From positions 704,001-768,000 of the forward strand of contig CBDCYI010000011.1 of assembly GCA_965224085.1 (NCBI GenBank): DNA of 64,000 nucleotides. Direction: 5' to 3'. Below the pieces are notes generated by a model that was not told the origin of the DNA, ran no database searches, and saw only the letters and a list, made by a program, of their open reading frames with translations. Each line of letters opens with the position of its first letter. The stretch's first letter is position 1. Shown here piece by piece: positions 2,421 to 64,000 of this stretch. Made by a program: the position numbers and the translations under genes. Origin of the DNA: Candidatus Marinacidobacterales bacterium (lineage in GTDB: Bacteria > Acidobacteriota > Vicinamibacteria > Marinacidobacterales > SMYC01).

Positions 2421-2933
2421 TTACTCTTCCGGGTATCGCTCGAAAAGCGTCGTCACGGCCGCGTTAATCTGCTTTTCCGCTTTGTCCGGTGTTTCGAGAG
2501 GGTAGGTCCGCTTCGCGTGCCACACGAGAAAGTTCGATTCGGCTTCGACGAGCTCGATACTGAAATTCGCGAGCTTCTCGCGGTTGAAATCGATCTGCAC
2601 CGAGGAGTTGGCGTCGTCCCAAACGGAACGCTGTTGGGAGGCGCGGCCTTGGACGCGTTCAACGAGCTCCACGCGGTACTGGATGCGCACATCCGGCCGC
2701 ACGGTGTCGGGTCGATAGCCCAGCTCTTTCAACGACTTCTGAACGGCGTTTACGATTCGCAAGTGGTTGGCCATGTTCTCGAGCGGCACCTGCTTCTTGT
2801 TCCAGGCATAGGTCTTGTAGTTCGAGAGGTCGGTAAGGTCTAGCTCGTCGAGATTAGGAAGTTGTGGTAGCTCCGGTTTCTGGGCCGTCTGGACGAACAA
2901 CGTAGCCGCGAGTGCGAGAACGGGACCGATCAT
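2421..2933 (-). CDS. DUF4136-like exported protein
   Basis: Signal peptide; DLSNYKTYAW motif; C-terminal INAAV..LFERYP; GGAGGA RBS before ATG 2933. Confidence 0.7.
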   Translation of the reverse strand: MIGPVLALAATLFVQTAQKPELPQLPNLDELDLTDLSNYKTYAWNKKQVPLENMANHLRIVNAVQKSLKELGYRPDTVRPDVRIQYRVELVERVQGRASQQRSVWDDANSSVQIDFNREKLANFSIELVEAESNFLVWHAKRTYPLETPDKAEKQINAAVTTLFERYPEE

Positions 2934-2996
2934 CAATTCCTCCAGCACACAGTTTCTCTAATAAGGTGAATCGTTGTCAACTGTACGGACGGCTCG

Positions 2997-59583: not shown

Positions 59584-60495
59584 ATGAAGCAGGCAAGAAA
59601 GACACAGTTTTTCGTCGCTGCGATCGCGATATTGGCCGGATGGTCAACCTTGGCCGCGGCGCAGGGACAGCGCGCCTTGACCCCGGAAGAGCAAGCCGAG
59701 CGGGAGAAGCGGTTTCAAGCCGAGCTCGTCATGCCTCGACCGGTTGAAGCGCTCGATTCTATCTGGATCGAGGAGCTGACCTGGGTCGAGATTCGTGACG
59801 CGATCGCCTCCGGGAAGACGAGCGTCCTCGTCCCGACCGGAGGGATCGAGCAAAACGGCCCCTACGTGGCGATGGGGAAGCACAACTACATTCTTCAGAC
59901 GGCGTGCGAGGACATCGCGAGAGAGCTAGGCAACGCGCTCTGTGCGCCCATCGTCAAGCTCGTGCCGGAAGGCGATATCGACGAGCCGTCGGGCCACATG
60001 CGCTATTCGGGCACGATCAGCGTCCAAAACGAGACTTTCGAGGCCGTGCTCGAAGACGTCGGCCGGAGCCTGAAGGTGCATGGCTTCGAGAACATCATTT
60101 ATATAGGCGATAGCGGAGGCAATCAGCTCGGCCAAGAGGCGGTGACTGAGCGGCTCAACAAGCGCTGGAAGGACGCGCGCGCGCATCACATCGGTGGTTT
60201 TTACGACAATAACGGGCTCATCAAATACATGAATGACGAGCTCGGGATAACCGAGCCTTCGAGTGACGGCGTTCACGATTCTTATTGGATCACGGCGCTT
60301 CAGATGGTGACGGACCCATCGACGGTCCGCTACGAACAGCGGGTGGCCGCGAACAAAGCGATGGTGAACGGTGTGAGCATCGCGGACCTCGACAAGACGG
60401 TTGCGGTCGGCAAGAAGCTGATGCAGTGGCGCGTCGACAAAACGGTCAAGCTGATTCGCGAATCGATTGGCGCGGGCCATGCGTCACAGCAATAA
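59584..60495 (+). CDS. Creatininase family protein (exported)
   Basis: EELTW.E, PTGGIEQNGP...GKH, IGDSGGN and HD. Confidence 0.88.
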   Translation: MKQARKTQFFVAAIAILAGWSTLAAAQGQRALTPEEQAEREKRFQAELVMPRPVEALDSIWIEELTWVEIRDAIASGKTSVLVPTGGIEQNGPYVAMGKHNYILQTACEDIARELGNALCAPIVKLVPEGDIDEPSGHMRYSGTISVQNETFEAVLEDVGRSLKVHGFENIIYIGDSGGNQLGQEAVTERLNKRWKDARAHHIGGFYDNNGLIKYMNDELGITEPSSDGVHDSYWITALQMVTDPSTVRYEQRVAANKAMVNGVSIADLDKTVAVGKKLMQWRVDKTVKLIRESIGAGHASQQ

Positions 60496-60507
60496 GACGC
60501 GCGCTTG

Positions 60508-60577
60508 ATGTCACTTGCTGCCGGCTCCCGCCTCGGCTCTTACGAGGTGGGCTCTGCGATCGGTGTCGGTGGTATGG
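60508..60577 (+). pseudogene. Ser/Thr protein kinase 5' end interrupted in the Gly-rich loop by IS110 end
   Basis: Manual translation MSLAAGSRLGSYEVGSAIGVGGM, cut where GEVY would follow. Confidence 0.8.
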
Positions 60578-60592
60578 ACTCCCCACGCCGGA

Positions 60593-61888
60593 TCAAGAGA
60601 AAACCTTCTTCGTAGGAATCATCGTCGATTCGCTTTTTGTTGTGGACGTCCGCGAGGGGTCGTAAAGAGTTCTTTGTCGAAGCATCGCCATGGCGATGGG
60701 TAGAATGCGGTCCATGACGCCTCTGAGAGCTCTGGCATGGCTGTGGCCCGCGTCGCGAAGCCGATCGTAGTGCTTTTTAAAGTGTGGGTCGCGAAGCACG
60801 GCAGTGCTGGCCCAATGATGGAGAGCGTTATTGAGGGGCAAAGAGCGAGCTCTCCTCATCAGGATAGTTGGTCGCAACTGACCGCGCTTGCCGCTTTTTT
60901 TCGTGACGGGTGCGATGCCGCTGAGAGTCCTGAAGGCTTTGAGATTTCGTAGCCGAATGGGGTCGTGGGCATAGCAGAGCACGGAGGCGAGCACGTAAGC
61001 ACCGACGCCGGGCAAAGAGGCAAGAATGGCAGCGTCGGAGCACTGCTTGTCGTTCAGTGCTTGCAAGCGCTTGAACCACTTCTCGAGATGCTGGTCGGAG
61101 GCACGACGATGTTGTCGAACGAGGAGCAACTGCTGAAGGAGCAGTTCGAGATGCTCAGAAGTAGCTTTGGTGGTTGCATGCGCGACTCGGAGTGGTTTTT
61201 GATTGAGGGTATCGAGGATCTGCTCGGGTTTTACGCGTCGGATGCGGTGTTTTTTAACGAGCGTCTCGATGGTGTGGCGGCTAAGAGAGTTGGGGCTGGA
61301 TTCGAAGAAGAGTTTTAGGAGCTCGCAGAAAAACGCGTCGAGAGCCTTATTCTTTGGCGCGAGCGAGACGAGGTGAGGCCAACAACGAGTAAGGAGTTCT
61401 CGGATCTGCGAGCTGAGGGCAACGTGGTTTTTGACAAGTTGGTCGCGGGTGCTCAACAGCCCGCGCATAGCAAGGATCTCCGGAGGTGGAAGTTGCAAGC
61501 GCTGAAAGCGGTGACCGTCGGTTCTGAGCGAATCGGCGAGAACGAAGGCGTCGCGCCGATCATCCTTGGCGCCGCTCATAGAATGCCGGTCGCGGAAACG
61601 GTCGACCTGCTTGGGATTGATGGAGAAAATGGCGATGGCGTTGTCAAGAAAGAGCTCGACGACGGCTCCATGAGGCTTTTCGATCGCCACTGCGATGCGC
61701 TCGGTGTCTTGCGTGGTCAGTTCCAGAAGCCAGCCGATCGTTTCTGAAAGTCCTTCGCGGCTATGAGGAAAGCCGCGCTCCCCCATAAATTGTCCCCTGG
61801 TATCGACCACGCTGGCCAAGTGAAGCCATTGGCCCAGGTCGACACCGACGAAGAAGTCGTAGTCGAGCTGATTCCTGGAAGAACTCAT
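60593..61888 (-). CDS. IS110-family recombinase/transposase
   Basis: DEDD RuvC-like residues (GVDLG, AIEK, KDDRRDA); SLPGVG and GIAPVTKKSG (Tnp-domain Ser). Confidence 0.95.
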   Translation of the reverse strand: MSSSRNQLDYDFFVGVDLGQWLHLASVVDTRGQFMGERGFPHSREGLSETIGWLLELTTQDTERIAVAIEKPHGAVVELFLDNAIAIFSINPKQVDRFRDRHSMSGAKDDRRDAFVLADSLRTDGHRFQRLQLPPPEILAMRGLLSTRDQLVKNHVALSSQIRELLTRCWPHLVSLAPKNKALDAFFCELLKLFFESSPNSLSRHTIETLVKKHRIRRVKPEQILDTLNQKPLRVAHATTKATSEHLELLLQQLLLVRQHRRASDQHLEKWFKRLQALNDKQCSDAAILASLPGVGAYVLASVLCYAHDPIRLRNLKAFRTLSGIAPVTKKSGKRGQLRPTILMRRARSLPLNNALHHWASTAVLRDPHFKKHYDRLRDAGHSHARALRGVMDRILPIAMAMLRQRTLYDPSRTSTTKSESTMIPTKKVFS

Positions 61889-61901
61889 TGCCGTCAGCGC
61901 A

Positions 61902-62036
61902 TGTGATGTTTCATCGGCCCCTGTACCGGCGCTCGAAGCGCAACTCCCCATTGGATGTCCATCACAAGAAAATTGCCGGCACGCGTGTCCATACCGGGCG
62001 CTCGGAGCGCAGGGCGAAGTATGGCGTTGCCGGCAA
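61902..62036 (-). ncRNA. Putative bridge RNA (target-binding and donor-binding loops); 5' end not defined
   Basis: Two stem-enclosed internal loops, each capped by a GCGCT-N3-AGCGC hairpin; loop sequences match the observed insertion junction and the element end. Confidence 0.8.
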
Positions 62037-62083
62037 GCTGCTGACGAAATCGAAAATAGTTCAAGCTCATCGTGAGATTTGCT

Positions 62084-62500
62084 CTACCACTGCAATCGAA
62101 GCTGGCGCGCGATGCCACCAGCTCGTGCTGGTTTTTTTCTCGGTTGTTTCGGGCGAAGCACGTCTGCGAGTTTTTCTCGAAGGTAGCGAACATAAGGCGG
62201 GTCTAGATATTCACTTCGCACTTCCTCGAGCACAGGTGAAAAATAGCGAAGGGAGCGAATGGGTTGTAGTGGCTCCTCATGCTCTTGTAGCTCCCGACGA
62301 GCGCAACCCAGAAGTAGGGCGCACTCGAATTCGTATAACGGGACGCCCTGGCGGTAGAGTCGCGTCGCCATGAAGCGATCGTCGCGCCGTGGTCGCTCAG
62401 GTGTGTTCGGAATAGAAACATAGATATCCAAAACCGCCCGGACATAATCGTTTTCTGTTAGAGCGTCGCTCGTGAGCGGTTTATCACTGAGCTTCGACAT
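62084..62500 (-). CDS. Hypothetical passenger protein
   Basis: ~138 aa; YVRAVL..Y...P.TP, ALLLGCARR, PIRSLRYF.PV.EEV; GGAGG RBS. Confidence 0.7.
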   Translation of the reverse strand: MSKLSDKPLTSDALTENDYVRAVLDIYVSIPNTPERPRRDDRFMATRLYRQGVPLYEFECALLLGCARRELQEHEEPLQPIRSLRYFSPVLEEVRSEYLDPPYVRYLREKLADVLRPKQPRKKPARAGGIARQLRLQW

Positions 62501-62889
62501 CCATCCACCTCCCGCGTCCGCCGCAGATACAGCATTTGGCATATCCGAAACTGTCAAGCTTCGTTTTCATTGAAAGAACCATCGAGCTCCGTGACCGGAT
62601 CTGTTCTCTGATTCCTACATTGCCCGAGTTACCGACGTGAATGGAACCATGATCCGTTACTTTTTCTTGGTGTCGTCGATACTCACGTTGCCGGTCCGCA
62701 CAATCTCGACTGTCCTTCGACACTTTCTCGATCTTTGCGGTTGTAGCCGCGACACTTTATTAGGCCGGCATGATAAGAGCACGCTTTACCGCAGTAGCAG
62801 TGTCCACGGTCACAGCTCTTGCAGATGTAGAAGGCCTCTGAACAGTTACGACAAAAACGCTGGTACACAACGACTGGTTTGGTGGCCAT
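62484..62889 (-). pseudogene. Cys-rich (Zn-finger-like) passenger protein, frameshifted near 62720
   Basis: CRNC...CKSCDRGHCYC..AC in one frame, continuing as DRQREYRR...VTDHGS...CCICG in another. Confidence 0.65.
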
Positions 62890-62947
62890 TTGAGACTCAG
62901 CAAGCGCTGGACTATGGCGTTTTCTCTTGATCCGGCGTGGGGAGTCC

Positions 62948-63921
62948 ATTCCGTACGGATCCTCGTGATGGTACTCGAGCCGGTTGCGCTCGGGACATCG
63001 TCTGCCGTCGTGCGCGACAAACGTGCACTGTCCCCCATCTCGCACCCATACGAAACGTTTCACCGCGGCGGCGATGCCGCGCACACCCGGTGACGTGTCG
63101 GCGTCTTCGACATTCGTTCTCGGGTTCTTCGTTTTACCGAAACGCTTGGCTTCGAGCCGCTCGAGCTTTTCGCTCACCGCCGCGTCGATGACCGAAGCGA
63201 GGTCACTACCGGGAATGAGCGCCTCGAGTCGTTCGAGTTTGTCGCGAAGCTCGGCGCTCGCCGTGAATGTTACTTGATAGCGCGCCGGTGATAGCGGCGC
63301 CACGGTCGGACGTTTTTCAGGTGCTGTCTCACGTGCCTGTGGCGGCTCATTCTCACCCGGCTCACCCGGCTCACCCGGCTCACCCGGCTCACCGTGCGCC
63401 TCTGCTCTTTCTTCACGTTGCTCGTCCGACGGCTTGGAAGGCTTGGACGATCCGGACTGGGCTTTCGGTTGCGGCTTCTTTCGAATCTTCGGTGGAACAT
63501 CCGGTTTCGGAGCCCATTCCGCCACGAGCTCTTCGAGCTCGCGTTTGCTCTTGTGAGTGGCTCTTGCCAAGACCTCTTCGCCATTGGCCTCGGTGAGATG
63601 TTTCGCGATCACGGCGATGCCACACAAGTGAAGGCGTCCATCCTCGAGCATTGTGAGAAGCGCGGGAAATCTGCGTGATAGCCGGGCGGCGGTGATTCGC
63701 CGATAGGCTTGCGCTTCCGATAAATGCAAAACGTCCAAGCAAAAGCGGAACATGGACGGCGCGGCTTCGCGAGCAAAGAGACGACGCGCATCGACCGCAG
63801 CGATATGCGCGACGAGCACGGCCTCGCGACACCGCGACTCCTTGAGGGCGTCCGATAGTCGAACAAGAAGCTCGTCATCCGATAATGCTGAGAGCCATTT
63901 CAATGTGTCCTTTGTAGTCAT
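62948..63921 (-). pseudogene. DUF222-like/HNH endonuclease domain protein truncated within the HNH motif by IS110 end
   Basis: LSDDELL.RL...LHLSEAQAYRRI.AAR; VWVRDGGQCTF...RC...LEYHHEDPYGM, then IS end sequence. Confidence 0.8.
63352..63393. repeat. 9-bp tandem repeat (CTCACCCGG)x4 plus partial, encoding GEP repeats
   Basis: Direct reading; lies in the linker of the HNH protein. Confidence 0.9.
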
Positions 63922-64000
63922 GCTTTCTTATAACATGGACTTTTTGGACGCTCACCGCTAGCGAGTAACTAACACTATCGGATAGAAACGCTTTCGAAGT

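Follow-up and report, generated by a model that had tools for sequence, protein, structure and literature searches.

A predicted bridge RNA in an IS110-family element of a Candidatus Marinacidobacterales bacterium matches the element's own ends and the glycine-loop codons of kinase genes

A 64,000-nt stretch of the genome of a Candidatus Marinacidobacterales bacterium (assembly GCA_965224085.1, contig CBDCYI010000011.1, positions 704,001 to 768,000; hereafter the window) contains a truncated copy of an IS110-family insertion sequence. Upstream of its recombinase gene, at 61892-62046 (-), lies a structured RNA that we take, from its fold and its guide matches, to be a predicted bridge RNA of the IS621 type. 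We consider it very probable that this element is an IS110-family unit working through such an RNA, with a donor-binding loop at 61902-61966 and with the recombination, circle junction and layout proposed below. The element type, an IS110 bridge RNA system, is known; new are the displacement of the RNA from the element end, a target that is a coding motif and is met by guide variants at a codon wobble position, and a group II intron at the same site in sister genomes.

The putative bridge RNA (61892..62046, -) is composed of an outer closing helix, a target-binding loop, a linker and a donor-binding loop, and it matches our covariance model with 156 bits. Seven RNAs were aligned with MAFFT and folded with RNAalifold: those of the window, of a subfamily about 90% identical to it in the same genome, of a copy from another genus (L008) and of four distant relatives (recombinase identity 30-100%). 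Compensatory changes were found at 21 of 41 pairs, and the consensus is an outer helix with two successive stems, each bearing an internal loop and a hairpin. A covariance model made from this alignment matched at 53 of the 60 loci retrieved with the recombinase, always on the strand of the gene and ending a few tens of nucleotides before it, which places a structured RNA with two internal loops upstream of the gene. In the model alignment of 50 distinct sequences, paired cells make up 88.5% (28-41% with slid partners) and 37 of 42 pairs change on both sides, values reached in 0 of 500 shuffles; these pair counts are inflated because the alignment was fitted to the model, which lessens their weight in favor of the reading, and the independent MAFFT and RNAalifold run agrees with them. 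The same model found no second bridge RNA near the left end at E values up to 10. The guides described below are arranged as in IS621, the left ones in top-strand sense and the right ones complementary to the top strand. The linker between the loops, 61967-61975 (-), reads AAUUUUCUU, directly follows the strong stem of the target loop and was scored as terminator-like (L001 2424-2403); transcripts could in principle stop there, after the target loop alone.

The donor-binding loop (61902..61966, -) is closed by an outer stem (TGTGATG at 61902-61908, CATCACA at 61960-61966) and contains an inner hairpin (GCGCT-CGA-AGCGC, 61929-61941). A sequence-only reading of the window had given this stem, hairpin and loop, and its coordinates are exact to the base. 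The left donor guide (LDG), UGGGGAGU at 61943-61950 (plus strand ACTCCCCA), repeats the element's final 8 nt exactly (61950-61943 equal to 60585-60578), directly before the GG/CC core at 60576-60577, as had also been noticed. The right donor guide (RDG), GUACAGG at 61920-61926 (plus strand CCTGTAC), is complementary to the CC-TGTAC of left ends in other copies. Both loops show the same spacing, as claimed, with a core-pairing pair of Gs at +8 and +9 after the inner hairpin (CCGGUAUGG vs. CGGUACAGG).

From this loop the earlier reading had predicted a donor, GGGGAGT-CC-TGTAC, whose left-end part is absent from the window. The alignment of nine left-end copies bears it out: eight finish ...GCGTACAGG (...GCAAGCGTACAGG) in window orientation, that is, they start CC-TGTAC on the element strand, and then run into unrelated flanks; the ninth, a fragment on contig C9, has a 1-nt deletion (GCGT-CAGG). 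The right ends read GGGGAGT-CC-AT... in 11 of 11 copies. Ends and donor loop are shared by the copy from another genus (L008, 62% protein identity) and by a decayed copy in a congener (L028). More distant relatives obey the same guide-end rule with other letters (GUAUAGG with CC-TATAC; CGUGGAAAGU with CGTGGAAAGT-CC). The donor loop is recognized, then, by the LDG match at 60578-60585 and by the RDG complement in 8 of 9 left ends, in L008 and in L028, with the LDG leaving the core uncovered. This last point had been entered as a caveat; it is true, and we judge it to be no problem, as the LDG duplex of IS621 (A123-C130, 8 nt) is likewise shorter than its left-target-guide duplex (A50-U58, 9 nt) according to Hiraizumi et al. 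(2024, PMC11208158).

The left donor TGGGGAGT (60578..60585, -), the final 8 nt of the right end and identical to the LDG, occurs four times in the window against 1.04 expected, a count reached in 0 of 100 shuffles, and three of the four occurrences belong to the element (its right end, the loop, and an inverted relic at 62938-62945). GTACAGG by itself is common (6 found in the window, 2.2 expected), and its meaning therefore rests on the independent left ends found elsewhere. The sequence-only reading had also proposed a search for GTACAGG-GCGAAGT junctions, which succeeded in part: the GCGAAGT flank is exact in L008 and agrees at 6 of 7 letters (GCGAGGT) in two copies of this genome, whereas the exact 14-mer GTACAGGGCGAAGT does not occur in the genome.

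The target-binding loop (61973..62036, -; stem 61973-61980 with 62029-62036, inner hairpin 61998-62010) holds a left target guide (LTG), ACUUCGCCC (ACUUCGC-CC), at 62012-62020 along with a right target guide (RTG), GGUAUGG, at 61989-61995, the latter exactly complementary to the window flank CC-ATACC. The encoded target is ACTTCGC-CC-ATACC, and its other strand, GGT ATG GGC GAA GT, spells the G-M-G-E-V codons of the kinase glycine loop. By manual reading, the positions following the right guides also fit the handshake rule of IS621 (Hiraizumi et al. 2024, PMC11208158), the A after GGUAUGG lying opposite donor T7 and the G after GUACAGG opposite target C7. The target guides match and co-vary with the flanks through three RTG variants, with U, A or G at position 3. 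GGUAUGG goes with the flank ATACC in the window copy and in C4a (C5c has ATCCC). GGAAUGG, the guide of the 90% subfamily, finds ATTCC exactly in three of seven flanks (C11a, C4b, C5b), with one mismatch in C9a and C5a and two in C11b and C4c, and GGGAUGG in L008 goes with CC-ATCCC.

There are 14 distinct insertion sites in the genome (11 right-end junctions, two left-end-only junctions and one footprint). Eight lie in Ser/Thr kinase codons for GxGGM|GxVY, one is ambiguous and five are elsewhere. Downstream flanks were called Pkinase by Pfam from profile position 14 (E = 2e-52, 2e-31 and 1e-41), and the copies L008 and L028 also sit in kinase loops. In the 6.87-Mb genome the guide-encoded target is matched perfectly over its 14 nt only once, in a kinase loop that is unoccupied, FQLIRPLGKGGMGEVW. 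Kinase loops also account for two of the seven sites with one mismatch, but most two-mismatch sites are not in kinase genes. A limited literature search returned no published report of kinase glycine loops as targets of IS110 elements. Near position 655213 of contig C11, beyond the limits of the window, there is a kinase gene with the reading ...HYEILEPIGK-CGTACAGG-GEVYRARD..., in which the final 8 nt of the element's left end take the place of the loop's GGNGGNATGG. The pattern resembles the footprint of a deletion that joined the gene's TCGGCAAG to the same TCGGCAAG that the 90% subfamily has just inside its left end.

The recombinase gene (60593..61888, -; coding part 61888-60596) encodes 431 amino acids (aa) plus stop. 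Its product has the N-terminal RuvC-like DEDD domain and the C-terminal Tnp20 domain of the IS110 group (DEDD_Tnp_IS110, PF01548, 6e-30, residues 14-171; Transposase_20, PF02371, 2.7e-11, residues 287-374). Searches with blastn found the element at 12 further places in its own genome (G000), in two subfamilies that are ~99.7% and ~90% identical to the window copy. A full copy on contig C5 (L001 1005-3606) is 2602 bp long, and members of the 90% subfamily have 2639-2641 bp. In transposase orientation the unit starts with CC-TGTACGCTTGC..., continues with ~280 non-coding nt that include a strong hairpin, and then carries a cysteine-rich gene, an open reading frame (ORF) of 157 aa, the structured RNA and the recombinase gene, before ending ...GTGGGGAGT, followed by the CC of the target; the stop codon is just 15 nt away from the right end.

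Orthologues of the interrupted gene are uninterrupted in three congeners (G001, G002, G004), where they read ...GGCGGGATGG|GCGTCGTCTAT... (ATGG|GCGTC) and translate to GAGGMGVVY; the occupied site reads ATGG-(2602 nt ending GG)-GCGTC. These empty sites show that the insertion is 2602 bp long and has one 2-nt core, CC, common to donor and target, with no target duplication. A 381-nt contig from the public run X19 joins L001 1002 to 3605 with a 2-letter ambiguity, skipping the 2602 nt. It is only ~90% like the flank and has low depth, and we therefore read it as probably the empty site of a related organism, not an excision product. The whole long unit has moved to at least seven sites, and every full copy moves as the long unit.

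When the two ends are joined, they give TTGATC, 17 nt (CGGCGTGGGGAGTCCTG) and TACGCT with TG directly against TAC, just as the sequence-only reading had stated; TG in this place is one base off the canonical extended -10 (TGnTATAAT). The -35-like TTGATC (60591..60596, -) lies 13 nt before the core and overlaps the transposase stop codon. Of 25 predicted junctions, 23 have TTG at 13-14 nt ahead of the core and 21 have TAnnnT at +3 to +8 beyond it. The 25 are 23 deduplicated loci with donor-guide matches at both ends plus the two subfamilies of this genome; they include one probably false right-end match (L065) and, since donor ends are common by descent, do not amount to 25 independent tests. 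In the -35 hexamer the last three letters vary, whereas TTG is constant, as is the spacing. The geometry is that described for IS110 junctions by Durrant et al. (2024, PMC11208160), who showed that the junction promoter of IS621 drives its bridge RNA. Motif conservation leads us to regard the junction -35/-10 as probably working as a circle-specific promoter.

The motif is present and conserved here, but lies ~1.1 kb from the start of the RNA instead of adjoining it. The left end is 610 nt from the RNA in L027, which is the locus L008 again, and in L028 it is 1171 nt away. By comparison, of the 47 relatives in which the RDG complement is matched upstream, 33 have CC-TGTAC 36-55 nt before the RNA and 42 have it within 155 nt. 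The intervening space in this element is filled by cargo, and the junction motif consequently does not abut the bridge RNA. The 157-aa ORF (62084..62557, -) belongs to no known family; it is carried by this genome's copies and is absent from L008. The cysteine-rich accessory gene (62484..62889, -) is frameshifted in the window subfamily (N-terminal frame 62683-62889, C-terminal frame 62484-62723) and intact in the 90% subfamily (137 aa; L002 2926-3336 (-)) and in L008 (126 aa). Its protein shows the pattern CxxC...CxxC...YC...C plus a C-terminal CxxCG, has no Pfam family and has 14 unnamed homologues; relatives are present in 22 genomes out of a sample of 401 from the Acidobacteriota (G089, one of the 22, is unpublished), often in several copies. 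At 14 other loci, tblastn found no IS110 recombinase beside these homologues, and one homologue (L097 1489-1935) lies directly upstream of an IS21-type transposase. The gene looks like an accessory gene that travels with mobile elements.

Further features of this region were noted. A 14-bp GC-rich hairpin 160-190 nt from the left end (L001 3415-3445; deleted from the window copy) has a counterpart at a similar place in L008 and is terminator-like on the strand antisense to the recombinase, as is a second site just upstream of the RNA (L001 2544-2559). These antisense sites could block read-through from the kinase gene or attenuate junction transcripts. In several relatives from the Acidobacteriaceae (L041, L043, L044, L052, L053, L073 and others) the right-end donor match is 2.2-4.8 kb from the left end, which suggests cargo downstream of the recombinase.

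From the protein domains, RNA structure, guide matches to ends and flanks, exact boundaries and motif conservation, we infer a mechanism that would involve circle formation, activity of the junction promoter and expression of the RNA. The LDG UGGGGAGU has the top-strand sequence of the right end and would pair with the bottom strand, while the RDG GUACAGG would pair with core plus left end on the top strand (CC-TGTAC), the two guides together specifying the circle junction GGGGAGT-CC-TGTAC. The upstream loop would specify ACTTCGC-CC-ATACC in the same manner. Strand exchange by the DEDD/Tnp20 recombinase at the common CC core would then set the 2602-bp element antisense into kinase genes, with no duplication. 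With 0.6-1.1 kb of cargo between left end and RNA (the cysteine-rich gene with or without the 157-aa ORF), a junction promoter would transcribe the cargo first, and the bridge RNA would be made either by read-through with processing or at an internal promoter.

A number of results do not favor this scheme. A fold of 61880-62100 as a single sequence has the expected two-loop shape but, at z -1.77, is not significant against shuffles, and an Rfam scan of 60000-64000 gave no match (bridge RNAs may be missing from release 15). The LDG is unpaired at the second core base and meets the first only by a U-G wobble, the next RNA base being U. The genome assembly contains no circle junction and the contigs of four public runs no back-joint, although contigs cannot show rare forms. 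Kinase loops make up only 8 of the 14 insertion sites, and the guides fit poorly at several, with 1 to 5 mismatches per site and 5 in 12 non-core positions at C11b; either some positions weigh more, or older insertions predate guide drift. Taken at their most skeptical, the non-significant fold and the commonness of GTACAGG would mean that the loop matches are coincidental and that the stem-loops are merely structure in the 5' untranslated region of the recombinase mRNA. We give this view a negligible probability: a blind prediction of the left end was borne out by 8 of 9 copies and by two other genomes, guides and flanks co-vary, and the structure covaries over 50 distinct sequences; left ends, covariation and empty sites already contradict it.

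The conserved TTGnnn-N17-TACnnT might not be a working promoter here. It could be kept for contacts of the recombinase or RNA with subterminal DNA, for the stop codon contained in TTGA, or by descent, with transcription starting internally or reading through from outside. The long distance to the RNA in this element, in L027 and in L028 is in keeping with this view, as are the -10, which is weak (TACGCT, 3 of 6 positions), the overlap of TTGATC with the stop codon, and the short subterminal inverted repeat of IS110 donors described by Durrant et al. (2024, PMC11208160). Donor ends are near-invariant across the clade, so that conservation alone cannot separate these roles. The variable -35 positions, however, drift (GAC, GCG, GCC, GCA, GAT) while TTG and its 13-14 nt spacing stay fixed, which fits a promoter better than a fixed contact, and in IS621 the equivalent promoter does drive the RNA. 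A consensus scan of L001 900-3700 found no sigma-70-like site upstream of the RNA on the element strand, a result that speaks against an alternative start and at the same time is awkward for the scheme that we prefer. On balance we regard a role other than promoter as unlikely. It is possible, if doubtful, that the 2.6-kb unit is itself a secondary expansion, in which an ancestor of ~1.5 kb captured the cysteine-rich gene and later the 157-aa ORF through an outer CC-TGTAC and its inner end decayed, a history compatible with the bridge mechanism. L008 has a TGTACG (about 2925-2935 (-)) ~35 nt upstream of the RNA start, the usual left-end distance, which may be a relic of the inner end; a 6-nt match in a ~20-nt window has a chance of ~0.5%, but it was spotted after looking, and the matching place in this genome's copies shows no TGTAC. 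The homologues of the cysteine-rich gene that lie apart from IS110 recombinases, one of them beside an IS21-type transposase, mark it as a travelling gene, and expanded IS110 loci arising from flexible end recognition have been described (bioRxiv 10.64898/2026.08.14.744561). All full copies nevertheless move as the long unit, and no short form was found.

In an orthologous kinase gene of a further congener, G003, a different element of 3529 nt interrupts the sequence exactly at ATGG|GCGTC, on the kinase sense strand (L106 267-3795). It encodes a reverse transcriptase (RVT_1, 5e-32) and contains a nested DUF772 transposase. Rfam group II intron models match it below their gathering scores, domains 1-4 with 41.8 bits (E = 9e-10) and domains 5-6 with 30.5 bits, the latter match ending at the last inserted base. 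Intron matches occur at 17 places in G003 and 4 in G002 (L107-L122 among them), and at none in G000, G001 or G004. All 16 of the 5' flanks examined end in ...ATGG, and 13 of the 16 read as kinase loops, e.g., HYEILEPIGKGGM. At intron position 353, CCATGCC (RNA CCAUGCC) is complementary to the exon end GGCATGG and is a candidate exon-binding site 1 (EBS1). The intron, being sense-oriented, could be spliced out of the kinase transcript, whereas the IS110 element is antisense and disruptive. A limited literature search found no relevant publication on group II introns homing to kinase loops.

We lean, by a small measure, toward a wider interpretation, in which the coding sequence of the kinase glycine loop (GGN GGN ATG|GGN GAN GT) is a genus-wide landing pad that is repeated only through conservation of the protein motif, two unrelated RNA-guided elements (IS110 and a group II intron) home to the same phosphodiester bond in it, and the bridge RNA is uncoupled from the junction promoter by cargo. 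If this is so, RTG variation at exactly the codon wobble position (GGU, GGA or GGG before AUGG) would let sublineages sample different paralogues, and the uncoupling would imply a different way of making the RNA; the layout in any case prompts one to ask how a bridge RNA lying 1.1 kb away from the junction promoter is produced. The presence of an intron at this very bond in sister genomes suggests that homing sites can be provided by conserved protein motifs of large paralogue families, and with at least eight kinase genes hit in this genome, such insertions may shape kinase repertoires.

Natural bridge RNA targets known to us so far are extragenic repeats. The present RNA would be a natural bridge RNA with a 7-nt RTG aimed at a coding motif, and its three wobble-position guide variants offer a ready series for the study of retargeting and mismatch rules. 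As described for IS621 (Durrant et al. 2024, PMC11208160; Hiraizumi et al. 2024, PMC11208158), the element shares with it a DEDD plus Tnp20 recombinase, a two-loop RNA upstream of the gene, the guide senses and the handshake positions, a common 2-nt core with no duplication, a donor more conserved than the target, and a -35 in the right end with a -10 in the left. It differs in its core (CC here, CT in IS621), in the length of the RTG (7 vs. 4 nt) and of the element (2.6 vs. 1.28 kb), and in its target (a coding motif vs. a repetitive extragenic palindromic, or REP, element); further, its left end is ~1.1 kb from the RNA with two ORFs between, and its LDG stops before the core.

Carrying cargo is in itself nothing new, since IS110 elements bearing cargo over a wide size range are reported in a preprint by Hu, Xie, Yang and Rubin (bioRxiv 10.64898/2026.08.14.744561). 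The present unit resembles the expanded elements described there in exceeding 2 kb, in carrying extra genes and in having guides that still match the outer boundaries. That preprint stresses plasmid-derived or resistance cargo, 3' extensions and mostly partial mobilization; here a small, fixed cargo lies between left end and RNA, and the whole unit has moved. We did not find cargo in this position described, although the supplements of the preprint may list a similar layout.

A guide RNA downstream of the gene was not found with our upstream-RNA model: L001, L002, L008 and the window each have a single match, 5' of the recombinase gene. In the IS1111 group the guide, a seekRNA, is encoded downstream of the recombinase. 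Members such as IS4321/IS5075 and IS1111-attC insert sequence-specifically and in one orientation into repeated transposon ends or attC sites. The element studied here likewise inserts in one orientation into a repeated sequence, with the difference that its target consists of the codons of a protein motif. In IS492 a promoter is said to be formed where the ends join in the excised circle, whereas here it is the conservation of the motif that points to one. Durrant et al. (2024, PMC11208160) cite IS492 among the reports behind their statement on junction promoters.

The copy in the window occupies 60578..62918 (-) and retains 2341 of 2602 nt, by blastn against its own genome (full copy L001 1005-3606). 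At its right end the core dinucleotide (60576..60577; GG on the plus strand, CC on the element strand) is placed by the empty sites of the three congeners and by the contig joint with its 2-letter ambiguity. On the same side a Ser/Thr kinase gene, interrupted within the codons of its glycine loop, is left as a 5' fragment (MSLAAGSRLGSYEVGSAIGVGGM, read and translated; 60509..60577, +), which serves as the right-target flank (element strand CC-ATACC) and has the same context as the flanks called Pkinase by Pfam, from profile position 14, in other copies. The window recombinase was called 100% identical to the copies on C5 and C4 (bit score 961.4, against 963.2 for the window's own).

At the other side, the alignment to the full copy stops at 62918, equivalent to C5:1765185, whereas the left end is at C5:1765446, which leaves 261 nt missing. 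The left end is absent from the window, both plus-strand GTACAGG matches (31264 and 50239) being far from the element, and it was lost by deletion, not just cut off by the limits of the window. Fused to the truncated element at 62918/62919 is an inverted relic of 29 nt (62919..62947, +), consisting of 27 nt of the right end of a second copy and its CC core, within an exact 31-nt inverted match found by blastn (60574-60604 vs. 62919-62949). The second copy had cut an HNH-type endonuclease gene (62948..63921, -) after ...EYHHEDPYGM; the HNH label rests on an HH...PYG motif seen by eye, and a DUF222 match (2.7e-4) is below the Pfam cut-off. The flank CC-ATTCC in this gene fits the RTG of the 90% subfamily. 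On the simplest reading, two copies inserted head to head, one in the kinase gene and the other in the HNH gene. A deletion between them would then have removed the left end of the first, the intervening DNA, and all of the second except 29 nt. The junction is unlikely to be an assembly artefact because contigs of independent runs break at the same position. The window copy cannot serve as a donor; its intact recombinase and RNA could act in trans. A donor loop that can be read from raw sequence and predicts an absent element end provides a practical rule for annotating truncated IS110 copies. Inside the interrupted HNH/DUF222 gene, at 63340-63392, the window also has a perfect short tandem repeat of GCTCACCCG units, which encodes GEPGEPGEPGEPGE.

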